A stretch of 64,000 nucleotides of DNA from Eledone cirrhosa (taxonomy: Eukaryota), in the NCBI GenBank assembly GCA_964016885.1, contig OZ024744.1, positions 33,852,001-33,916,000 of the forward strand, given 5' to 3'. The translations under genes and the position numbers were made by a program. Numbering within the stretch: position 1 is the first letter of the stretch; the number at the start of each line of letters is the position of its first letter. A model generated the notes under the pieces. The model did not search any database. It saw only the letters and a program-made list of their open reading frames with translations, and was not told the origin of the DNA. Of the stretch, positions 36,922 to 63,478 are shown one piece after another.

Positions 36922-39900
36922 CTACAGAACAATGTAGAGAGAAGGCCCATTTACACGGGCCATTCTCGCTTCTTTCACCCACCTTTCATAAAACTGTCTG
37001 GGACCAAGCACTTCTCTCTCCATCCTGATTCTTCTTCCGAAGTGGTATCGGAAGAAGTAAACCAGGTGATGGCCGGAGAGAAAGTCACCCGACCTCAGAC
37101 CTTTCAGGCGCGTCCACCACACAACCTCTTTCATCATGGCTATTACGCACAGAAAGACCGCCTCTGCTTCATTTCTGAAGGGAGGAGGCGGCTTGATGTT
37201 CACCACAGACTCGGCGGTTAATCGAATCGGCGCCACACGCGACAGCAGTCGTTCGACGTAGCCCCACAGATCGGCAACGCCCGGGCAGTGTACCAGTGCA
37301 TGCGCAACGGTTTCCTCGTCGCGCACGCATCTGGGACAGATCTTTTTCGCGGGATCCCTGCCCGGGCGCCCGTGTCTGTAGAGCTTTTCTCGAACAGGCA
37401 GAGCCCCCCGGTAACACTGCCAGGCTAGGGACCTCTGGAAGTTGTCCATGGGTCCCGGGCCGAAAGTTCTACCGAACAGGCTGGCCAGTTCGTCCTCCTC
37501 CATGCCTAGCGACTCTCCAAGGGTGTCGTCGCCCCTGCTAGCCACCAACCCTCTATAGAATGTCGAGGTGGATTCTCCACTGACAGTCGGGTCCGCTTGC
37601 CAGATAGCCGTGAGCGCCTGGGCACACTCGGTGTGCCAGTTGTCCAGTTTTCTCGGTCTTTGCTTCACCCAGGATTGCAGTTCGGTGAGCGAGACGAGCT
37701 GTGGGAAGGCTCGCCTCACAAACGGGGTCCACACCGGCTGACCGTTGAGGAATACCTGTAGATGCCGTAGCCTCAATGCGTGCCTACGCATCAACAGCCA
37801 CGGCATACCCAGCCCTCCTTTCGAAGGGTGCTGGCAGCAGATGGATCTCCTCACCATGGGAGGCCGCTTCTTCCAGAGGAACTGGAAGAGCATGCGTTCA
37901 ATGATGGTGAGCTTTTCCTTGGGGCAAGGCACGACGGTCAGGTGGTAGTAGATGACGGACGCTATGTAAGCGTTCGTCACCTCCGCCCGACCTTTCAGTG
38001 ATAGTTTGCACTTGGCCCACTTCTGGGTCAGCGCAAACACCCTGATCGTCACCTCGCCCCAATTCTTCTCCACCTGAAGGTCCGGTCCGAACCAGACCCC
38101 GAGCAGCTTCACCGGGCCCTCCGTCCACCGCCCGACGACACCGTCTAACGGCATCGGTTTGCCACTCCACGTTCCGAGTTGCAAACCGACTGACTTGTCC
38201 TGGTTCAGCTTAGCCCCCGTCAGCCTTTCGTATTCCTCCAGTAGGGTGGCGATCGCCCCGATTTCCGAGGCGTCCGCCACCATTACTGTTACGTCGTCGG
38301 CATAGGCCGAGACCGCTTTGTGCAATCCCGGTTCCAGGGGTATGCCCCGCAGCAACTCCAACTTCCGCAGCAGTGGCTCGAGAGTCAATACGTACAGAAG
38401 GGAGGAGAGGGGGCACCCCTGTCTGATGGATCGGGTGATTTGAAACGGCTCCGAGAGGTAGCCGTTTAATTTAATCCTAGAGTAGATGTTGCCACTGTGG
38501 ATGGCAGAAATCCAGCCCCTGAAAACGGGTCCGAAGCCCGCCGCCGCTAGCACCGCATCCAGGTAACCATGGTCGACCCTATCGAACGCCTTAGATTGAT
38601 CCAAGTTGATCAGGGCCCCACCAAAGCCGGGTTCGTAGCCAACCCTCTCTATGATGTATCGCATGAGGTGGAGGTTGTCGTGAATGGACCTGGACGGGAT
38701 AGCGCATGTCTGCGCGTCTCCCACCAAACCACCCACCACAAGCGCCAACCTCTTCGCCAACACCTTGGCCAAAATCTGTAACTCTGCATTCAGCAGAGTT
38801 ATGGGCCTAAAGTTACTTAAGTCGTCCCCCTTGCTCTCGTCCTTCCTCACTAGCGTGACCACGCCCTTGGTCACAGAACAGGGAATTCTCCCGTTCTGTT
38901 GCCAGTTGCAATAGACAGCCTCGAGGAGTTCGGAGAACAAGACCGGCATAGCTAAATAAAGTTCGTATGGTAGACCATCGAGACCCGGGGATTTGCGTCT
39001 GCTGCATTGGCTGAGCGCTTCCCCGATTTCAGTGGCTGTGATTGGCCTTTCGCAGCACTCCGCTTCGCCGCTCGAAAGACGCGGTAGACCGTCGAGGTAT
39101 GGACCGAAGTCCACATCCCCGTCCGGCCCCCCGCCACCTCCGAACAGTCGAGCAAAGTGCCTTTGAAAGGTCTCGCACATTCGCTCAGGTTCAAGGATCA
39201 CCCGTCCATCCTGGTCTCGCAAAGACCGAATGGTGGATTTAATCCCACTCTTGGCTTCTGTCACGCGGGCCCAGCTAACAGCTTTGGTCCCCTCGTTTCC
39301 TAAAGCACGTATTTTACTTCGGACAACGCAGCCTTCGTGCTTCGCGTCAAAGAACTGGCTCAATGCCGTTCTCGTCGCTAACACTCTGGCTACGTCTCCG
39401 CTCCTAATCGCCTCTTCTAGTTTATCTGTTAATTCCCTTTCCCTCCTATTTCTATTCGCCGCTAGTTCCTTACTGTAACCTATCGAACTTACTCTAATCT
39501 CTCTCTTTAGAGATATCCACCACCTACTGTTGACGATCGCTCCCGTCAACCGCATCTTAACTAAGCTACTAATCCGGTTCCTGTAATCTTTCTTTGTCGG
39601 TAAGGACAAGTTCATCTTCCAGTAACCGGGACCCTGTCTATGCGTTCTATCAAGGTTGACCACGCAGGTCACTAATTTGTGATCTGAATAGCCAACCATG
39701 ATCAGTTCTGGACAACTGAATACGTCCCTATCCTTACTCCTAACCAAAAACCTATCTAGGTACGATCTAGATTGTCCACTGCGGTTTGCCCAGGTCCAGG
39801 TTGGCGCAGTTGGACAATCTAGTCGAAATCTATCGACCAGGTCGAATCGATCGAGTAACCCCTTGAGGCTGCTACACCCCCCTCTATCGGGACATGCCCC

Positions 39901-40354
39901 TGCATAGTCCCAACGCGCATCTAGGATTCCATTCCAGTCCCCCACTAAAAGCAGGGAACGCGACGTTCCTAGAAAAGTCTCCAGACGCTGGAAGAAGTCG
40001 GCTCTTTCCGCCCCGAAGGGAGCATAAAGACCGACCAGTCTGAAAGCCCCGCCTTCACCGCCTCCGACGTCCAGCACCAGTAATCGACCCCCCGGGTCCG
40101 AGTGAACAATCTGTACGTCGAGAGTCAGACGTTTATCCAGCAGTACGGCAACTCCCCCCCCCCCCGCCTCCGGGTTGACAGAGAGATGCGTGCATCTCAA
40201 AGTCATCGAAGGCGGGCGCCAGCTGTCTCACGCTGCTGATCCGACTCTCGCAAACAACCATCACATCTATACTTTGTGACCTGAGGTCACTTAGAAGCTT
40301 TGCTTGCTTCCAAGCTGAGCCCAGGCCACGCGCGTTCAAACAGCCAACTCTCAA
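36922..40354 (-). CDS. LINE ORF2: AP endonuclease, reverse transcriptase and C-terminal zinc finger; one frameshift at the homopolymer ~40154-40165
   Basis: GCLNARGL, VCES, GDWN, YLDRF and SDH (APE); PGLDG, FRPITLLN, DQSKAFDRV, RQGCPLS and YADD (RT); CPRC..ETVAHALVHC. Confidence 0.9.
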
Positions 40355-40359
40355 TTGAT

Positions 40360-42230
40360 CTATTTTGGTGTTGAAAGTGAAGAAAGAAAAGCACTTACCT
40401 CTCCGGGTTGCGTAATTTCCATGGCATCAGGTGTGTTGGGTGGAGGGATGTTTTGTGGTGGTGTGGGGGTACACGTGTGTGGTGGGGTTGGGGTATTTGG
40501 AGTTGTGTCAGGGAGGGGGGCGGTTATGGGGAAATCTTTCAAGAGGACGCGATTCAACGGTTTTAAACAGGGGGGGGGGGGGGGGGGGCTCACGTCCCGT
40601 CTAAATTGTTCTTTTAAGGAACGATAAAGGTCCAGAGGGACCTTTATCATTTTTAAATGGGTGAAGTTCTCTGTTGAGATAAAGTTTGGCCCTTCGGTCT
40701 GCACCATAGGGTTATTGTTTATTAATTTAACCAGTTTTTTGTTTTCTTTATTTATATGTGTGTATTGCAACGTCTTTTTTTGTGATGCTGTCAATGTTTC
40801 GGAGAGGGGAGGCGCAGATTTATTTTTGTTTGTTGAGGGTGGGGTGTTTTTGATTGGAGTTGGTGTTTGTGTGTGGGTTATTTGTGGTGTGCTGGGTGTG
40901 TGTTTTCTTTTTTTTCTTTTAACTTGTCTGAAGGCTTCTCCTCCTTCTTCTTCAGAAGTTGGGGGAAACTCTTCAGCGCTAGGTGGGAGGGACGTGTTGT
41001 GTGGTTGTTTTTTTTTTGCGGGAGGGGTAGATTTGTTACTGTTTTTTTTATTATTTGTTTGGAATGGGTTTTGTGGTGGTGGTGGTAATGTTTGTGTCGT
41101 GCTTGTGGTTGGTGATGGTGGTGTTTGTGTTGTGGTTGGTGGTGGTGATTTTTGTGTCGTGCTTGTGTTTGGTGCTGGTGGTGGTGATGTTTGTGTTGTG
41201 TTTGTGGTTGGTGGTGTCTGTATTTTGTTTGCTGTGTGTGGTATTAGTGTATTTTTGGAGGTGGGTGGTGTTGGTGTACTGTTTGTGGTGGGTGTGGGCA
41301 ATAGTCCTTTTTGGGGGATACGTTTCGGGCAGTTAGCCTTAACGTGTCCCCTTTCCATGCATAAATAGCATGCTGGTCTTCTCCCCTCTACAATTATGTC
41401 TATTGGGGTAAGGTCATCCAGCCAGATGCGATCCGGGATTTGTGCTATTCTTTCGGGCCTCATTTGGACTAGTATGTCGAGGCCCATTCCCAGGAACGCA
41501 TCTCCAGTTGCCTTCCCCATTGACAACATTGTGTCTTCGCCCATATCAATGAAGCCAGCAATAGCCCACCAGAAGTCCATTGTGGGCAGCATTGTTTTTA
41601 CTTTTACTCTCTGTGTTCTTCTACCCATGTAGGAGGGATAGAAGCTATATGTTGTCGATGAGAGTGGGCTTAAGGAAAGCTTCTCCGCCGTTTCCTTGTC
41701 TCTTGTTAGGACCGAAATGCTGCCATAGAGTCGGTCCTTTCGTATGAAGAGAATATTCTTCATATAGTCTTTTAGGACTAACTCTATTTCCATTTGGCTG
41801 GGCTGTGCTGGCTTTCTTGTCTGGTTCAGTATAGTTCTGTAGAGAACTGTGTTTTCTGCTCTGGCTTTCTTGAATTCTGGGGGGGGGGGGAGTTAATGGA
41901 AAACATTCCGTTCTCCCCCAAAACAATGTGTTTCTTTGCTTCGGCCAGTTTTTCTCTGGCGGCAGTTAGGTCAATTGGTGTGTATGTAATGGATTGTTTT
42001 GTTTTCTGGGCGAAAGTTGCCCTGTTGTTATTTGTATTATTTTCTGTTTGTTTGTTTTCTGTTTGCTCATTTTCCTTAACATTTGTTTTTTCATTTTCTT
42101 TGTTTGTTTCATTGTCTAATTTTGTTGTAATTATTTTTTGTTCTTCAGACTTGGGGGGCGTGGCAGAGCTAATGGCAGACATGTCTGCCATCTTTTCCGC
42201 CATGCTGCCAAGAAAGAAATTTTTCGGCAA
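40360..42230 (-). CDS. LINE ORF1 (CCHC zinc knuckle, P/T-rich tail); one frameshift at the homopolymer ~41879-41891
   Basis: CYLCMERGHVKANC. The GENGMFSINSPP segment joins PEFKK...KPAQPSQMEIELVLK as in the uninterrupted paralog at 54859-55965. Confidence 0.85.
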
Positions 42231-44709: not shown

Positions 44710-46006
44710 AATTTCTTTATTAGCCACAAGGGCACAAAAGAAGGGGGACAAATACAAATGGGGAGTTTACATACAGGTATATGAAAATAAAACTATTAAT
44801 AAAATAACAAATAACAATTGATATCCCCAATAAGGAGGAGGCATTACACAGGGGTTGTACACACCCCTAAAAAATGAACAACCCTCATCTCCAGGAGCAC
44901 CAAGAGTGAGTACTCTCTTCCTCTTTTTCCTCAACCTACAGGCTTATATAGAGAGAAGGCCCAACCACTGGGGTCATCTTTGCCACATTCACCCACCTTT
45001 TATAAAATTTACTGGGGTACAACACCTCTCTCTCCATCCTGATTCTTCTTTCAAAATGATATTTGAAAAAACGAATCAGTTGCTCGCCGGAGAGAAAGGT
45101 GTCTGACCTCAGCCCTTTTAACCTCGTCCACCTTATAACCTCTTTCACCATAGCCATAACACATAGGAAAACCGCCTCTCCCTCGTTTTTGAAGGTGGCG
45201 GTTTGATCTTGACAATGGACTGGGTAGTCAACTGGATTGGTCTCACCCGCGACAATAGTCGTTCTACATAGCCTCACAGGTTGGTAACGCCCGGGCAGTG
45301 TACAAATGCGTGCGCGACGGTTTCCTCGTCGCGCACGCATCTCGGACAGATCTTTTTCGAAGGGTCCCTACCCGGGCGCCCGTGTCTGTAGAGCTTGTCT
45401 CGAACTGGTAGAGCTCCTAGGTAGCACTGCCAGGCCAGGGACTTTTGGAAGTAGTCCATTGGTCCCGGGCGGAAGGTCCTACCGAACAGACTGCCCAGTT
45501 CGTCCTCTTCTACGCCTAGAGTTTCTCCGAGCGTGTCGTCGCACTTGCTGCGGACCAACCCTCTATAGAATGTCGAAGTGGAGTCTCCACTGATTGCCGG
45601 GTCCGTTTGCCAGAGGACTGTGAGCGCCTGAGCACATTCGATGTGCCAGTCGCCCATTTTCCTCGGTCTTTGCTTGACCCAGGACTGCAGCTCGGTCAGC
45701 GAGACGTGTCGTGGGAAGGCTCGCCTCACGAACGGGGCCCACACCGGTTGTCTGGTGAGGAATATGTGGGGGTGCCGCAGCCTGAGCACCGTTTTGCGCA
45801 TCGTCAGCCACGGCATCCCCATCCCTCCGTTTGAAGGGTGTTGGCAGCAGATGGATCTTCTCACCAAAGGAGCCCGTTTCTTCCAAAGGAATTGGAAGAG
45901 CGCGTGCTCCATTTTGGCTGGACAAGGCACGACGGTCAAGCGGTAGTAGATGACGGACGCTATAAAAGTGTTCGCCACCTCCGCTCGACATTTCAAGGAT
46001 AGTTTG
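44710..46006 (-). mobile_element. 5'-truncated Tx1/L1 copy inserted in the RTE fragment
   Basis: Homologous to the ORF2 C-terminus at 36922-38010. 13-bp TSD cagagtaaagatt at 44697-44709 and 46007-46019. Confidence 0.93.
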
Positions 46007-46452
46007 CAGAGTAAAGATTGAATGCTAAAGGCAACACCAGACATCCCTGTCAAACTCCCCTGTTTACTGCGAACCATTCAGTGAGCTCTGTGTCCACTCT
46101 CATTGCAGCTTGTTGCTCGTCATACAGATTCTTTAATAATTTTACCATTGTGCCGTTAACTTCCATCCCCTTCAATACGTTCAAATGCCTTTTTTCTATA
46201 ATCTACAAATGCTAAATACAATTAGAGGAATTTTTATGTCTCATTTTAAATTAAATGAATTGACGAGCGTATGTGTATGCCTGTGTCTATGTGTATGTAT
46301 GTGTATGAATGTGTGTGTGCACGAGAGAGTAAAAAGAAAGAGAGAGAGGAGAGCGAGAGTTGGGATATGTGCGTATATGTATATGCATAGGTGTGTTTAT
46401 TGTTTATTTTGTGTACGTGTGGTATATATATATCTGTCTCTTTCTCTCTCTC

Positions 46453-47492: not shown

Positions 47493-47953
47493 ACGGGAGT
47501 AAATATTTCAAAAAACGTTACTCACTCATTTTCGATTAATTATTTTATTTACATCATTTTCTAAACCTGGAGCTGGAAATCATTTTGTTATTCTAAATAG
47601 AATATTAGTCCAATAATTTCTTTCATAGCATAAATGTGTTTTTGTCTTTGCAAGAAATTGTTCTTCTTGCTTTACATAATGACGTAATTATCCTCGCATA
47701 TTTTCGTCCATCGCCAGAGAACGTCTTCACGGACCAACGTATGGTTTTCCTATTTTCCTTCGGTTGTAACGTTTTTTGAAATATTTAATTATCTGTCTAC
47801 AGATTGATTTTTCTCAGCTTCAGAAGGTTACAGGGTTAAAGCAGCGATTCTTTGTTGAACATTTTCTAACCCCGAAAAAAAAACGGAAAAAAAAATATTT
47901 TACTTCCTAATAATCGTTTCTCTCTCTCTATATATATATTTATATATATATAT

Positions 47954-50110
47954 AGCAGTAGAAATTGAACCTAACAGTAGGACAGTAAACTTTTTAGATG
48001 TCACCCTAGAATTAGACTCTGGTCTCTACCGTCCATACCGCACACCTAATGAAAATCTTAAATACCCTAGGAGCATAATTAACTCAATAGTTAAAAGCGT
48101 TCCCAATAGAGTGTCCACCCTGACGGCTAATAGAACTATCTTCAACCTGCACGCGGAATACTACAACTCTGCACTTGTAAACGCTGGTTACATTGAGAAG
48201 ATTTCTTACAACGGCCCAAATAGAACCGTAACGCCGCCAAACATAACCGGCCCCTTAAAAACGAACATAGAAGAGGTCACCACACCTAGAACAAATAATA
48301 ACCTAAGACCCTCTGTAGCCGGCATGGCAGGCAGCGTTACACACAACTGCCAAGGAGATAAAGCTATACTCTCCAACCCCAATAAGGACTCCGACTATCG
48401 CACACGTTTACGTAGTAATAGAGACAAAAGACATAACGCCAACAGATTACTAGGAACCCCTATGACACATACGCCTAACCAAAACGCACGCAAACTACCA
48501 CCTAACCACAAAAACCTCACTAAACACTGCAGAGCCAGAAGTAGACCTGTCACGTGGTACAACGCCCCGTATTCTATACACGTTGCCACCAATATACCGG
48601 GAACCTTCTTCAGGGTTCTCGAACAATCTTTTCCACACACACATAAATACCACAAGCTCTTCAATAGACACACTGTAAAATTCTCTTTCTCCACAGCACC
48701 AAATCTAGGCCACACGATAGTACACACTAATAGGACAAACATACGAAAACACATGGTTGCCCCACAACAAACCACTACCACAACCCAGAACGAAACCACA
48801 TACACAACACAGCACAACAACCCACATGCCAGCTCCACACAGCATGCCGGCAACGTGCCACCACACCGGTAACACCCAACTGCAACTGCAAAAAACGGGT
48901 TGAATGCCCACTAAACGGGGAGTGCCTCGTTAAAAATATTGTTTACGGGTGCCATGTCACAGCCGCCAATAAAGAGTACTCATATATAGGTGCGACCTCC
49001 ACTACGTTTAAGGAGCGTTGGTATAACCATAGAAGCTTCTTTAAACATAGGCTGAAACGATCCCAAACCAGACTGGCCGATTTGATCTGGGACCTCAAAG
49101 ACAGGAACATCGAATCCCAGGTCACATGGTCAGTCGAAAGACGTGTGGCACAACTCCCCAGTGACAGAAACCACTGCAGGTTATGCCTGGCCGAGGCGGC
49201 AGAAATAATTAAATTAAAATCTGCCGTAAACTGTAGGTCGGACATAATTGTCAATTGTAGACACACCAGGATGAACACATTTTCTGCACAAACATTCGGC
49301 GGAGGGCCGCACACTAACCATGACCCAGCATAATAATAACCACCTCTTCCCCATCTCACCATCCCTCATCTCAGTGAATTTATTTTATTCTATTGCATGT
49401 AACCATTTGTAAGCCCGTATTTTGTATATCATGCCGCATCCATCACCCCAACCAAAAGACACATCGCCATACACCCCTCATCTTTGTAACATTGTGTTCT
49501 ATCTGTCCTCTCTGTCAGGTTTTACCTTGCAAACCATAGCAACATCTGATCCTGTAAATATAATGTCGATCATATCACCCCATCGCCACCACCACCACCA
49601 CCACCGCACACATCGTTATATATCTACCATCCCACACCCGCAACCTTACTCCCCCATGTTCCCTCTGTCTACCCTAACCTACAACCCCACGCAAAATTCG
49701 ATCCTGTAAATGTACTGTCGCACACACCACCACCGCCACCACTAGATACATCCACATACTTCAACAATCATTAACATCATTAACATCATCAACACATACA
49801 ATCCCTCACTCCCAGATCGACTGTGTTATATCTGCCCTCTGTCTGCCTTACCCTGTAACCCACCGTAACTTCTGATCATGTAATCATATTGTTGAACATA
49901 CCACCCTACCACCACCATGACCACAACACATATCGCTATACCCCCTCAAACCCTTTTCCCCGTGTTCCCTATGTCACCTTTTAACCTGTAACCCATCGTA
50001 TTATTCGATCCTGTATATTTTTGTCGCTCACAACTCCACCACCACCACCACAACAATCATTAACTTCATTAACACCGCCAACACATACCTTCCTCTCGAA
50101 CCAACGCAAG
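47954..50110 (+). mobile_element. 5'-truncated Penelope-like element (RT C-terminus, linker, GIY-YIG to 49333, repetitive 3' tail)
   Basis: VNFLDVTLEL, YYNSALVNAGY, WYNAPYS, HKYHKLFNRHTVKFSFS, CPLNGECL..IVY, YIGATSTTFKERWYNH, CRLCLAE and NCRH. Begins at (TA)n. Confidence 0.88.
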
Positions 50111-50152
50111 TGTGTGTGTCTGTGTGTAAGTATATTTTTATATATATGTACG

Positions 50153-50251
<99 letters not shown>

Positions 50252-50404
50252 ATAAATGCTCTGAAATAGCGATATATATGTGAATATAGACATAGAATAT
50301 TCGAAAATATTCTGTATGTTTATAATAAACATTTTGAAGACCTAATCGCTATAGAATAGAATACGTCACGTATTACAATTAGATTCTCGATAAAAACAAG
50401 GGAA

Positions 50405-50447
50405 GTAATCTACGCGTTTCATTCTTGTTAGAAATCATCAGGACCAC
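50405..50447 (-). ncRNA. Type I hammerhead ribozyme (also 50715-50757 and 51025-51067, minus strand)
   Basis: Reverse complement of the motif at 51377-51419. Confidence 0.88.
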
Positions 50448-51376
50448 ATATCCAGTGCTTTTATCGAGAATGACACAGCTAGAGACTTATAGAATACTTA
50501 GCTGTGTACAGGAACTGGTTTGAAAGAGCGGTTGCCGGTCCGGCAGAAATTAGAAATTGGAATAAATGCTCTGAAATAGCGATATATATGTGAATATAGA
50601 CATAGAATATTCGAAAATATTCTGTATGTTTATAATAAACATTTTGAAGACCTAATCGCTATAGAATAGAATACGTCACGTATTACAATTAGATTCTCGA
50701 TAAAAACAAGGGAAGTAATCTACGCGTTTCATTCTTGTTAGAAATCATCAGGACCACATATCCAGTGCTTTTATCGAGAATGACACAGCTAGAGACTTAT
50801 AGAATACTTAGCTGTGTACAGGAACTGGTTTGAAAGAGCGGTTGCCGGTCCGGCAGAAATTAGAAATTGGAATAAATGCTCTGAAATAGCGATATATATG
50901 TGAATATAGACATAGAATATTCGAAAATATTCTGTATGTTTATAATAAACATTTTGAAGACCTAATCGCTATAGAATAGAATACGTCACGTATTACAATT
51001 AGATTCTCGATAAAAACAAGGGAAGTAATCTACGCGTTTCATTCTTGTTAGAAATCATCAGGACCACATATCCAGTGCTTTTATCGAGAATGACACAGCT
51101 AGAGACTTATAGAATACTTAGCTGTGTACAGGAACTGGTTTGAAAGAGCGGTTGCCGGTCCGGCAGAAATTAGAAATTGGAATAAATGCTCTGAAATAGC
51201 GATATATATGTGAATATAGACATAGAATATTCGCATATATATCGCTATTTCAGAGCATTTATTCCAATTTCTAATTTCTGCCGGACCGGCAACCGCTCTT
51301 TCAAACCAGTTCCTGTACACAGCTAAGTATTCTATAAGTCTCTAGCTGTGTCATTCTCGATAAAAGCACTGGATAT

Positions 51377-51419
51377 GTGGTCCTGATGATTTCTAACAAG
51401 AATGAAACGCGTAGATTAC
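51377..51419 (+). ncRNA. Type I hammerhead ribozyme (also 51687-51729 and 51997-52039)
   Basis: gtggtc-CTGATGA-t ttc taacaa gaa t-GAAA-cgcg-TA-gattac. Helix I extends through an internal loop into gga/tcc and attctcgataaaagca/tgtttttatcgagaat. Confidence 0.88.
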
Positions 51420-52159
51420 TTCCCTTGTTTTTATCGAGAATCTAATTGTAATACGTGACGTATTCTATTCTATAGCGATTAGGTCTTCAAAATGTTTATT
51501 ATAAACATACAGAATATTTTCGAATATTCTATGTCTATATTCACATATATATCGCTATTTCAGAGCATTTATTCCAATTTCTAATTTCTGCCGGACCGGC
51601 AACCGCTCTTTCAAACCAGTTCCTGTACACAGCTAAGTATTCTATAAGTCTCTAGCTGTGTCATTCTCGATAAAAGCACTGGATATGTGGTCCTGATGAT
51701 TTCTAACAAGAATGAAACGCGTAGATTACTTCCCTTGTTTTTATCGAGAATCTAATTGTAATACGTGACGTATTCTATTCTATAGCGATTAGGTCTTCAA
51801 AATGTTTATTATAAACATACAGAATATTTTCGAATATTCTATGTCTATATTCACATATATATCGCTATTTCAGAGCATTTATTCCAATTTCTAATTTCTG
51901 CCGGACCGGCAACCGCTCTTTCAAACCAGTTCCTGTACACAGCTAAGTATTCTATAAGTCTCTAGCTGTGTCATTCTCGATAAAAGCACTGGATATGTGG
52001 TCCTGATGATTTCTAACAAGAATGAAACGCGTAGATTACTTCCCTTGTTTTTATCGAGAATCTAATTGTAATACGTGACGTATTCTATTCTATAGCGATT
52101 AGGTCTTCAAAATGTTTATTATAAACATACAGAATATTTTCGAATATTCTATGTCTATA

Positions 52160-52195
<36 letters not shown>

Positions 52196-52202
<7 letters not shown>

Positions 52203-52368
52203 ATACTTGGGGAGGGTCATATTTGTGTAATATTGCCAGAATTAATAACAGAACACACTCACTGTTTGGTTGGTTTTCGAAAAGCGAAAACCAACCAAAC
52301 AGTGAGTGTGTTCTGTTATTGATTCTGGCAATATTACACAAATATGACCCTCCCCAAGTATAACAATA
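52196..52368. repeat. Near-perfect ~170-bp palindrome; single-arm relatives at ~10100-10157 and ~25286-25345
   Basis: tattgttatacttggggagggtcatatttgtg... pairs with ...cacaaatatgaccctccccaagtataacaata. Centre ~52282. Confidence 0.9.
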
Positions 52369-52409
52369 TTTGTTTCGACACACGATTTCATATCAAAAAC
52401 CTCGCAAAA

Positions 52410-52469
<60 letters not shown>

Positions 52470-54304: not shown

Positions 54305-57300
54305 TCGTATAGTATAGACGCGTATAACATCGGCTCCTGCCTTTTTGAATTTTTGCCCATTGACAGTAAGTGTTTGTCTCTTTATTGTGTTGTCTTCGTG
54401 CCTTTTAACCACCCGGCTAGGTCTGTAGACGGGTGGTCATCGTATTTTTACCCCTTTTGGGGGTAAAAACTACTCCAAAAATTTTTTTGCTGACTCACAT
54501 GGTAAAAAATTGACGCCACGTCTGTAGCACGTGTGGACGATAACGCCACGCTCACTAATGAAAAAGAGAGAAAGAAGCAAGCGGTACAAAGCGTTTTGCT
54601 TTCCCGCGTCAACGTTGTAAAAGACTTTGTAAAAGGCGATATGCCGGACAAACAATTAAATACGGGTGCAAACTCAATTAATTACAACTCAAACACTAAC
54701 AATGACAAAACAACACACCAAATGAGAAAGATAACAACAACAAAAATGAAAACAACTCAAACTACGAGAAACAGAACAACGAAAACAAAATATCTTTTGC
54801 ACAGACTGCTAAAATATCAGTCACATATGTACTTGAGGATATATCAAATGCAAAAGAAATGTTTGAAAAAGCAAAAAAATATGTATCTTTTGGCGAAAAT
54901 GGATCTTTTTCCATCAATTCGCCCCCAGAACTAAAAAAACAGACGGAATTACGAACTGTTGTATTCCGTACAATTGCAAACAAAACAAAAAAACCAGCAC
55001 AACCATCTCAAGCTGAAATTCAGTTGGTCCTGAAAGAGGCTATGAAAGACATAATTTTCATACAAAAGGATAAACTCTATGGGAGTTTATCCATATTGAT
55101 GAAAGACGAATTGGCGGCGAAAAAATACTCTGTGTCGCCAATTCGTTCCACACACTACACCTTTTTCCCAACCTACATGGGTAAAAAACCCCAAAGAATT
55201 TGGATAACCACCATCACCCCAAACATAAACTACTGGTGGTTACTAACCGGTTTCCTCAACTTAGACGAGGACAACCTTATATCAATAGGGAAGGCATCCG
55301 GCGACGCGTTCAGTGGAACGAGCATTGAAGTTCTGACCCAAATAAGGCCAGAACGTATCGCCCAAATCCCTGAGCGCGTCATGCTGGATGACCGTACCCA
55401 CCTCAACATTATTGTGGAGGGTAGGCGTCCCTCCTGTTACCTCTGTGGCAATAGAGGTCACCTGAGAGCTGCCTGTCCCCAGCTCACACCGAAAAAAACA
55501 TTGCTACCAACACCCCAACAACCAACACCACCACCACCTCAACAACAACAACAACAACAAAAACCAACAACACCACCACAACAAAAACAACAAACACGTG
55601 AAAAAACAACACAGAACACTGTCCCACCCAACCTCTCCCCACCCAAAACAAATACAAAAACACACACACCGCAAACACTACCAGAAAACATACCCGTCCC
55701 ACCCAACAAGAAAGACAAACCTCTTTCGTCGCAAGACGAAAAAGATCCCTTCCAAATAGTAAAAAGAAAGAAGAGGAGGCGCACCACAGACACACTTATT
55801 AACATTAACCCTCCCCAAGAGAACACAAACTATATACAAACCAACCCTCCCCGTCACACAACACTAACTGCTGCGCAAAAAAGACTTTACAATATACATA
55901 CAACAATACACAGACAACAAAGAACTAATGAACACAATTTCGTCAAACCCTTCGGTCCAAACTGAAGGGCCTAACTTTCTAACTGCTGTGGGACTACCTC
56001 ATTTACAAATGATTAAAGTCCCAATGAACTTATACAAAACGTTGAAAATAAATTTCACGGCAGGCTTCTGACCCGTTTTCAGGGGTTGGATCACTGCTAT
56101 GCACAGCAGCCGCATCTGCTCTAGAGTTAAGGTGAACGGCTACCTCTCGGAGCCATTCGAAATCGCGCGGTCCATCCGACAAGGGTGCCCTCTCTCCTCC
56201 CTTCTGTGTGTATTGACTCTCGAGCCACTACTGCGGAAGTTTGAGTTGTTGCAGGGCATCCCTTTGGAACCGGGATTGCGGAAAGCGGTGTCGGCCTACG
56301 CCGATGACGTGACAGTAATGGTGTCGACGGCCTCCTAAATCGGGGCGATCGGCACCTTACTGGAAGAGTACGAAAGGTTCACAGGGGCTAAGCTGAACCG
56401 GGACAAGTCGATCAGTTTGCAACTCGGCACATGGAGGGACAAACCGATGCCCTCCGATGGCGTCGTCGGACGCTAGACCGAGGGCCCGGTGAAGTTGCTC
56501 GGGGTCTGGTTCGGACCAGACCTCCAGGTGGAGAAGAACTGGGGTGAGGTTACGAACAGGGTGTTTGCACTGACCCAGAAGTGGGCCAGTTGCAAACTAT
56601 CCCTGAAAGGTCGGGCGGAGGTGGCGAACACCTATATAGCGTTCGTCATCTACTACCGCCTGACCGTCGTGCCTTGCCCAAGGGAAACCCTCGCCAAAAT
56701 GGAGCGCGCACTCTTCCAATTCCTTTGGAAGAAGCAGGCTCCTTTGGTGAGGAGATCCATCTGCTGTCAACACCCTTCGAAAGGAGGGCTGGGGATGCCG
56801 TGACTAATGATGCGTAAACACGCATTAAGGCTACGGCACCTCCACGTATTCCTCACCGGTCAACCGGTGTGGGCCCCGTTTGTGAGACGAACCTTTCCCA
56901 GACTCGTCTCACTCACCGAGCTGCAATCCTGGGTCAAGCAAAGACCGAGAAAACTCGGCGCCTGGCACACTGAGTGTGCCCAGGCGCTCACCGCCCTCTG
57001 GCAGGCGGATCCGGTTATCAGTGGAGACTCCACCGCGACATTCTATAGAGGGCTGGTACGCAGCAGGTGCGACGACGCCCTCGGAGAAGCCCTAGACATG
57101 GAGGAAGACGAACTGGCCAGCCTGTTCGGTAGGACATTCAGCCCGGGACCTATGGACAACTTCCAGAAGTCCCTGGCTTGGCAGTGCTACCGAGGGGCTC
57201 TACCCGTTCGAGAAAAGCTCTACAGACACGGGCTCCCGGGTAGGGACCCCGCCAAAAAGATCTGTCCCAGATGCGTGTGCGACGAGGAAACCGTTGCACA

Positions 57301-57842
57301 CGCATTGGTACACTGCTCGGGCGTAGCCGATCTGTGGGGCTATGTCGAACGACTGCTATCACGGGTGGGACCGATCCGGTTGACAACCGAGGCCATTGTA
57401 ACGATTAAGCCGCCTCCCCCCTTCAAAAATGAAGGAGAGGCGGTGTTTCTGTGCGTAATAGCCATGGTGAAAGAGGTTGTATGGTGGACGCGTCTGAAAG
57501 GACTGAGGTCAGGCACCTTTCTCTCTGGCCAACAACTGATCCGTTTCTTCCGATATCATTTCGGAAGAAGGATCAGGATGGAGAGAGAGGGGCTCCACCC
57601 CAGTCGTTTTTATGAAAGGTGGGTGAAAGTGGCGAGAATGGCCCGTGTGAATGGGCCTTCTCTTTACATCAGCTTGTAGGTGGAAAAGAGGAAGGAACGA
57701 GGGAGCACCCTCTCTCTGTGCTCCTGAGGAGAAGGGGTTGCGCACTTTTTTCGGGGGTGTGTGCGACCCCCCAAACGCCCCCTCCATATTGAGGACTTTA
57801 TTGTTAATTTTATATTTGTCATTTGTTTTCTTTACACGCGCG
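54305..57842 (+). mobile_element. Internally deleted Tx1/L1 LINE (5'UTR, frameshifted ORF1 ~54499-56050, 3' half of ORF2 ~56060-57679)
   Basis: CYLCGNRGHLRAAC, RQGCPLSSLL, YADD and CPRC..ETVAHALVHC. The endonuclease and N-terminal RT are missing and there are in-frame stops. Preceded by (TATC)n. Confidence 0.92.
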
Positions 57843-57906
57843 TAGACGATGCCAGCCGAACAACAGAGCTGCGATGGAGTTGTTCTGCATGGTTGTCTAA
57901 TGTGTG

Positions 57907-58178
57907 TTTTCTAAATTTAAGACAGTAGGGAGGGGTGTGATATGGGGGAGAGTTAGCTGCTTTTTCTAGCAGGTTTAGTGACCTCATAGAGGATATGTTT
58001 TCTAAATTTAAGACAGTAGGGAGTGGTGTGATATGGGGGAGAGTTAGCTGCTGTTTCTAACAGGTTTAGTGACATCATAGGGGATAAGTTTTCTAAATGT
58101 AAGACAGTAGGAGGTGGTGTGATATGGGGGAGAGTTAGCTGCTGTTTCTAGCAGGTTTATTGACCTCATAGAGGATAT
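57907..58178. repeat. Minisatellite, 3 x ~90 bp
   Basis: ttttctaaatttaagacagtaggga...gatatgggggagagttagctgc at ~57908, ~57998 and ~58089. Confidence 0.92.
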
Positions 58179-59322: not shown

Positions 59323-60005
<683 letters not shown>

Positions 60006-62979: not shown

Positions 62980-63020
<41 letters not shown>

Positions 63021-63026
<6 letters not shown>

Positions 63027-63478
63027 TTGGAGCTCTGAAATAGCAATATATATATGGATGTATATATAATGTATTTTGCAATACACTTTATGCTTAATTA
63101 AAAGCATTTTGAAGACCGTATGCTATTGTTTTAGAGTAGTGACAAATTCACTTACTTTAATCTCAGCAAGCAGGGGAGATAAGCCGACAAGGCCTTGTTT
63201 CGCTTTTGTTGAAGCTTATCAAGGCTAACTACCCCTCCTGTCTACTGAGATTACTGATGTTATATTCTTATAGAATTCTAGTAAATAATCAGGAACTGAT
63301 TATACAGAGCGATTGTTGGTCAGGCAGAAATTAAAAATTAGAATTGGAGCTCTGAAATAGCAATATATATATATGGATGTATATATAATGTATTTTGCAA
63401 TACACTTTATGCTTAATTAAAAGCATTTTGAAGACCGTATGCTATTGTTTTAGAGTAGTGACAAATTCACTTACTTTA
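63021..63478 (-). mobile_element. 1.4 units of a ~317-bp repeat related to the 310-bp array, with a decayed hammerhead at 63182-63226
   Basis: ttagaattggagctctgaaatagc occurs at 63021 and 63338. Minus strand: agcc-TTGATAA-gctt caacaa aagc-GAAA-caaggccttg-TC-ggct. Confidence 0.8.

Follow-up and report, generated by a model that had tools for sequence, protein, structure and literature searches.

The window, a 64,000-nucleotide stretch of Eledone cirrhosa contig OZ024744.1, contains a head-to-head array of a 310-bp unit. The left arm (50246-51233) is 988 bp long, or 3 x 310 + 58, and its opening 2 bases are also part of the TA tract; the right arm (51234-52163) is 930 bp long, or 3 units. Each arm matches the unit without mismatch, and the three complete units of the left arm show 0 mismatches among themselves, so that an earlier sequence-only reading of three units plus about 58 bp followed by three inverted, identical copies is exact. 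Both flanks of the array are (TA)n, and the RNA-sense 3' ends face outward. The GC content is 0.33 across 50001-52000. The longest stop-free stretch in the array is 59 codons, with no open reading frame (ORF) for a reverse transcriptase (RT) or GIY-YIG endonuclease, confirming the earlier claims that the array has no convincing ORF and is bordered by (TA)n on both sides. There is no LTR, as the arrays directly adjoin (TA)n, and in the loci examined the (TA)n flanks would mask any target-site duplication. The features are listed below, with unit position 1 defined as the base directly after the predicted ribozyme cut.

50131-50247, no strand: (TA)n target, left flank
50246-51233, minus strand: left arm, three full units and a further 58 bp; in the RNA sense its 3' end faces left and lies at unit position 165 (the "tail" end)
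51211-51233, no strand: unpaired 23-base centre; the 5' ends meet bluntly at 51233/51234 (unit positions 108 and 131)
51234-52163, plus strand: right arm, exactly three units; 3' end at unit position 130-139 (the "short" end)
51353-51440, plus strand: type I hammerhead, predicted cut after 51413; repeats at +310 and +620, and three on the minus strand
51414-51723, plus strand: predicted 310-nt monomer, cut to cut
51538-51648, plus strand: module of about 110 nt (unit positions about 125-235) that spans both end sites and continues 3' of them
52163-52198, no strand: (TA)n target, right flank

At the short end of the right arm, the AU-repeat of the unit blends into the (TA)n target. By the predicted cuts, two monomers could be released from each arm.

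Hammerhead ribozyme

The core CUGAUGA was found at 51383, 51693, and 52003 on the plus strand and is mirrored on the minus strand; it is intact in 6/6 units. Predicted cuts fall after 51413, 51723, and 52033 (plus) and after 51031, 50721, and 50411 (minus), and the cut previously proposed after GUA at 51413 agrees with the position of the core. The layout is a 16-bp outer stem, a 3-bp stem with a bulge, a 6-bp helix I, the core, helix II, and helix III, with helix I running via the bulge into the 16-bp stem. The base of helix II is U.U, and helix III is a single pair closed by the palindromic loop ACGCGU. This minimal helix III is absent from the sequence-only reading, which had otherwise correctly described one intact hammerhead per unit with helix I extended to a stem of about 16 bp, a description to which covariation can now be added. 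The folding z score of the monomer was -3.9, and 0/100 shuffles equalled it. Rfam gave 0 matches here at the gathering score and no hammerhead among the 49 matches at E <= 10; hairpin-type Rfam matches were rejected as chance. The hammerhead call therefore relies on the consensus core and on covariation.

A scan of the loci retrieved from the genome yielded two further repeat families with the same hammerhead spacing. We aligned 19 variants from the three families without gaps, excluding singleton variants except for two rows of the third family. In this alignment 93% of cells pair and two-sided changes occur in 10/14 pairs, compared with 32 to 52% paired cells in slid controls. The covariation score was reached by 0/500 shuffles, a figure that is not a probability and overstates independence, as the rows are related within three families. 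Past helix I, the UA-containing bulge and the 3-bp stem are kept in all three families with compensating changes, and this conserved loop 1 motif supports the earlier suggestion that the arrangement allows loop-loop contacts. The one-pair helix III with a palindromic loop (ACGCGU or ACUAGU) is likewise common to all three, and the common ribozyme variants keep or better the pairing (276, G.U to A-U; 287, U.U to A-U). Hammerheads with such a minimal helix III are described as cleaving efficiently only as dimers (PMC4209133, PMC7229834). Co-folding predicts an intermolecular helix between two ribozymes, and cleavage probably depends on two adjacent ribozymes. The array has the unit size of non-LTR retrozymes (tandem units of 150 to 450 bp) and their GC content (<50%), carries one hammerhead per unit, is noncoding, lacks an LTR, and belongs to a dispersed family.

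Genome-wide family and its two end classes

In the genome of 3.0 Gb, we counted 1,041 exact tail-end junctions and 1,241 short-end junctions, with 0 in reversed controls. The genome copy number, which the sequence-only reading had proposed as a check, is thus more than 1,000 insertions by exact junctions. A protein match to Octopus vulgaris (68%) suggests that the host is an octopod. An exact pattern for one ribozyme variant returned 5,587 units (reversed control, 0), and a similarity search gave at least 344 unit matches in the best 40 of 172 candidate regions. Loci were sampled by similarity (21), consecutively along contig C1 from their tail ends (58), by the short end (20), and by variant (7). 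The set of 20 was picked as short ends without an exact tail match and is enriched in single-armed loci. Two loci of a diverged subfamily (L109 and L110) were excluded from the end and variant counts.

Two arms with both ends visible were present at 20/21, 49/58, 13/20, and 6/7 loci of these sets, respectively, 88 in all. In each of the 88, the arms are head-to-head and their outer ends fall at unit position 164-172 on one side and at about 139 on the other, and 0 are symmetric; at the 13 two-armed loci picked by the short end, the opposite end was always at 165-172. The count is 87 without L196, which repeats L071 beside an assembly gap, and the second arm of L189 is only about 11 bases long. 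Left uncounted were 2 two-armed loci with the far end beyond the stretch, 3 loci running off the stretch, 2 ending at a gap, and 11 single-armed loci. Single-armed loci made up 1/21, 3/58, 6/20, and 1/7 of the sets, or about one in ten. The outer ends lie in (TA)n across the examined loci. The short end falls on an AU-repeat of the unit that is able to pair with a (TA)n primer, and in many copies the T of the primer stands there in place of the C of the unit; the tail end has only 1 or 2 matching bases. These loci directly show the array architecture, the existence of two end classes and the strictness of their pairing, and the targeting of (TA)n. The locus in the window is ordinary within its family, and nothing sets it apart. 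At two single-armed loci (L186 and L094), the inner end lies at about 164-173, the expected seat of the second primer; one run may have hit the other start site there.

Haplotypes, arm lengths, and inner ends

The family comprises at least nine haplotypes, of which four are common. Both arms carried one haplotype at 61/64 loci, against a mean of 7.7 and a maximum of 19 in 2,000 permutations; in the ordered C1 set, the arms agreed at 42/45 loci (permutation mean, 5.6). Of the three exceptions, two are mosaics and one reflects a misaligned junction. At L073, the arms differ at one site, with a mosaic in one arm alone. Rare variants fill whole arrays. The variant 15T is present in 6/6 units of the window array and has 2 other matches in the genome, both single units of another haplotype; 232C is present in 8/8 units of L088 and elsewhere in 2 single units in other haplotypes. 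A parent-unit search for 232C and 15T returned only single units in other haplotypes from this one assembly, from which parent arrays may be absent. The 77 occurrences of a 2-bp deletion all fall in 9 arrays, as runs spaced 308 bp apart, on an all-or-none basis. The variant 261G recurs in three backgrounds. We rejected 295G and 287A as private variants, as they are common subfamily alleles.

Within arrays, 124 unit-level substitutions were found in 211,882 bases, a count that omits 40 nt at the inner ends; this supports the earlier proposal that the retrozyme is young. Unit-specific variants at L044, L082, and L100 are in register and mirrored in both arms, and 47 unit-level substitutions are unmirrored between arms. 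Uniform arms extend up to 17 to over 24 units (L039, L063, and L086). The arm with the short end is the longer one at 28/69 loci, with an extreme of 5,919 versus 1,009 bp at L064. The phase difference between inner ends is uniform (Kolmogorov-Smirnov P = 0.88, n = 69), only 3/138 inner ends lie within 5 nt of the cut site, and centres palindromic within 30 nt number 16/69, against 13.6 expected by chance. Arm lengths correlated weakly, with a rho of 0.33 (P = 0.02, n = 49) in one set and a rho of 0.07 (n = 20) in the other. The random inner ends, the independent lengths, and the shared haplotype are direct observations.

The agreement of arm haplotypes, together with rare variants that fill arrays, indicates one template behind both arms, with one unit usually recopied. 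Evenly spread inner ends, the lack of excess palindromy, and the fact that either arm may be the longer indicate two independent runs rather than fold-back copying. Judged from these variants, one unit seems usually to have been copied over and over, as a circle would permit, and the genomic pattern favours a monomer template. Repeated monomer copying is the best account of the uniform arrays, in line with the earlier idea that rolling copying explains the tandem units. A monomer circle would be insufficient for the mirrored variants; L044, L082, L100, and L073 would instead fit uncut mixed multimer templates or conversion.

Penelope-like elements in the genome

Penelope-like elements (PLEs) show a comparable signature here. 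The criteria we applied for PLE mobilization were a one-sided tail with an inverted, 5'-truncated arm, found at 88/88 loci, and a microsatellite target, here (TA)n. This signature of two fixed outer ends is missing from the sequence-only reading. Immediately to the right of the array, a fold-back at 52199-52412 consists of the 3' ends, head-to-head and strongly 5'-truncated, of a young autonomous PLE, one arm being short and one tailed. This PLE has frames of up to 1,198 amino acids (aa), an asparagine-rich insert, and many equal-scoring copies, with full copies at L173 to L184. We mapped 11 of its loci, of which 7 are head-to-head with both ends seen; 6 of these 7 have one short and one tailed end, and at L179 both outer ends are short. 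A second fold-back lies within (TA)n at 59353-59792; it is 198 bp long with a one-sided tail of 41 bp, represents the 3' end of one more PLE-like family, and is asymmetric in the same way. Directly to the left of the array, 47859-50100 holds the 3' half, now decayed, of a PLE family of very high abundance, with 56,510 first-pass candidates and an 861-aa frame in L143; its sequence is unrelated to that of the unit.

The PLE call is based on motifs identified by eye (a YVDD-type core, a Cys linker, and YIGET/YIGAT), on a weak GIY-YIG match (E = 0.006), and on a relative annotated as "reverse transcriptase domain"; Pfam recognized neither PLE frame. Judged by motifs rather than by a tree, the clades would be Neptune-like and Hydra-like. 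A hammerhead beside L173 was rejected as part of the PLE at that locus, as it lies on the other strand and outside the mapped frame.

An older, 322-bp sister retrozyme is present at 63019-63461 and at L123 to L142, and its shared motif has 1,368 matches. In its hammerhead, the core contains a compensated U3-A8 variant, and helix III is a 12-nt palindrome whose pairs covary. The 110-nt module is the best conserved part of the unit relative to this sister, and the ribozymes of the two differ. Being common to both despite the differing ribozymes, the module is the likely candidate for an RT recognition signal. A coding remnant in the module was considered and dropped, as a stop interrupts the corresponding frame in the sister family. 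A profile of the module matched neither of two PLE families (the decayed left-hand family and the young 1,198-aa family), the comparison being confined to these two, with several other PLE families present in the genome.

Proposed insertion mechanism

We consider it probable that the array is a young non-LTR retrozyme insertion whose head-to-head form arose in a single event, by a PLE RT-endonuclease priming twice on one RNA. An older array would be transcribed, and neighbouring hammerheads are predicted to pair via the palindromic helix III and release the 310-nt monomer. The monomer would close to a circle, and incomplete cutting would leave multimers. A PLE protein, probably a dimer, would then bind the conserved module and cut both strands of a (TA)n tract. 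As the observed ends suggest, one DNA end would prime at 164-172 on a match of 1 or 2 nt, and the other would anneal to the AU-repeat and prime at about 139. Both enzymes would travel round the template for independent random lengths, and the cDNA ends would be joined centrally, in most cases either blunt or through a few bases in common. We infer circles as the template. In the full version of this proposal, which we favour by a small degree, one enzyme dimer uses two fixed starts of the same circular RNA, with each broken DNA end taking one of them, and rolls outward in both directions. If true, this version would explain the inversion and one-sided tail of PLEs generally and would be the first direct genomic sign of PLEs copying and inserting retrozyme circles.

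The same two-start insertion could have used a template that is always a linear read-through multimer, with the ribozyme as a passenger and no circle. The mirrored variants at L044, L082, and L100 point that way, as do the weakness of a one-pair helix III, the insertion of uncut RNA by the PAc enzyme with the hammerhead dispensable in vitro (PMC11167929), and the report that 8/9 Xenopus retrozyme dimers were uncleaved (bioRxiv 10.64898/2026.07.22.740005). However, a new variant on such a template could not become a whole uniform array, and arrays could only shorten, yet uniform arms reach the lengths given above. Moreover, both arms can be filled by a rare variant for which the assembly contains no parent array, and the common ribozyme variants keep or improve pairing. 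We therefore regard an exclusively linear template as unlikely. Self-priming, in which one arm is a fold-back copy of the other, was proposed for palindromic PLE junctions (PMC3846280) and would account at once for the shared haplotype and the mirrored variants; the tail arm is longer at all three mirrored loci, and the centre of the window array is itself nearly palindromic (23 nt). It is contradicted by the many loci, L064 above all, at which the short-end arm is the longer, by a frequency of palindromic centres near that expected, and by the 47 unmirrored substitutions. On these sequence patterns, fold-back copying seems largely refuted as a general route and is improbable here, but it could apply to a minority of loci.

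Growth of short insertions by unequal crossing-over, with homogenization by gene conversion, was proposed for retrozyme tandems (bioRxiv 10.64898/2026.07.22.740005), and a period-7 variant pair at L064 hints at local duplication. Such satellite-like growth is very improbable given that both inverted arms share rare variants, that divergence within arrays is so low as to make them too young for homogenization, and that outer ends are fixed at more than 1,000 dispersed sites. Read-through RNA of the window array is predicted to fold as a 946-bp perfect stem, as would suit a hairpin locus kept by the host for small RNAs or for two-way expression of circles. The same form at nearly every insertion, with random centres and no mark of age or conservation, leaves this idea scarcely tenable. 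The sequence-only reading had likewise taken the head-to-head form to serve expression in both directions. That part of it did not hold, as the form is the standard insertion product of this family and of autonomous PLEs here and is best read as an insertion scar rather than a two-way design. That reading had also raised the concern that the inversion might be an assembly or chimera artefact. Local misassembly does occur, as the L071 junction repeated in L196 beside a gap illustrates. However, 88 loci have distinct junctions with fixed biological ends, and among 6,370 contigs of sequencing run X1 there are nine left-arm-to-right-arm joints of low depth (6 to 27) and differing phases, the junction of the window array not being among them. 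Head-to-head junctions are thus present outside the assembly, although X1 may be from the same individual, and the probability of an artefact is negligible.

Relation to known retroelements

Metazoan non-LTR retrozymes (Cervera and de la Pena 2020, PMC7229834; Li, Clavereau and Pollet 2026, bioRxiv 10.64898/2026.07.22.740005) resemble this family in being noncoding, dispersed tandems of 150 to 450 bp with low GC content and a type I hammerhead per unit. The axolotl HHR_Amex1 shares the one-pair helix III with a palindromic tetraloop, and HHR_Amex2 shares the U.U at the helix II base. Published metazoan retrozymes are described as head-to-tail tandems, whereas the rule here is head-to-head with two fixed ends. 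The term "inverted" is absent from the main text of PMC7229834 and appears in the 2026 preprint only in a reference title, and the supplements may show inverted loci. A PLE origin and local amplification of retrozymes were proposed in the preprint, and circular RNAs were proposed as PLE templates in PMC4209133. In the published cases, the PLE link consists of co-occurrence and pLTR homology; here it consists of an insertion signature, and no homologous PLE was found between the two families compared.

Endonuclease-bearing PLEs (Penelope/Poseidon, Neptune, Hydra, and Naiad) also have an inverted, 5'-truncated copy with a 26- to 33-bp tail at one end only, (TA)n targets, and RT starting internally at two neighbouring sites. 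Inversion with a one-sided tail of 30 to 40 bp and a (TA)n bias is described in PMC8557442, where the route to inverted, tailed insertions is termed undefined, and inversion with a one-sided tail also in PMC3846280, where self-priming on an antisense template was proposed. According to PMC11167929, two internal start sites bound the PLE tail, both strands are cut and extended, and a dimer is predicted; the PAc enzyme in vitro had no strand preference at either start site, which counts against a strict proposal of one start per end. The array differs from these PLEs in having no RT or endonuclease gene and in that both arms are multiunit arrays of a small unit, whose variants reveal the template of each arm.

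In twin priming of LINE-1, both target ends prime on one RNA to give a head-to-head product. In LINE-1 only a minority of insertions take this form, with nonoverlapping segments and a second site that varies, whereas here the head-to-head form is the rule, with a fixed second site, and the same sequence is copied by both arms. The literature searched, which took in few subscription papers, contained no inverted retrozyme arrays and no paired use of two starts on one RNA. Retrozymes, tailed PLE inversions, and two PLE starts are thus known, and the strict pairing on one template, derived from DNA alone, appears to be new relative to that literature.

The use of PLE enzymes by animal retrozymes has hitherto been argued from co-occurrence and homology. 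More than 1,000 very young, variant-marked insertions turn the questions of PLE insertion and of the retrozyme-PLE relationship into counts, namely of both starts used once per event, of one template for both arms, and of arrays born long. The family argues against fold-back priming and satellite-style growth, and it supplies a 310-nt substrate for an in vitro test.

Other sequence data and neighbouring features

The unit was found, at 99% identity, under 17 organism labels in 16 studies, with 20 runs containing 54 to 78% of its words; no RNA run was listed among those containing the unit. These foreign-label matches may stem from close relatives, from transfer, or from contamination by a highly abundant RNA. 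Six runs (X4, X5, X7, X9, X13, and X18) each gave one 331- to 340-nt unit contig, of differing haplotypes. Because every tandem array collapses into a contig of this kind, these monomer-sized contigs are no evidence of an RNA circle. A bacterial promoter scan gave chance-level results and is irrelevant here.

The genome is unusually rich in hammerhead repeat families. At least three more, with a 6-nt palindromic helix III, were seen at L161, L172, L174, L176, L099, and L173 and in the window near 3000 on the minus strand. Elsewhere in the window, a non-LTR retrotransposon, Tx1-like by eye, occupies 36922-40227 and 40360-41892 on the minus strand, with an open ORF2 (endonuclease, RT, and zinc finger) and an upstream frame; pieces related to it lie at 44918-46077 and 54706-57688. 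A 6-kb CAA/CAC-rich minisatellite at 12400-18700 has very long open frames on both strands and an extreme strand skew. At 57905-58178, three 91-bp tandem units, 92% alike, end a retrotransposon fragment.
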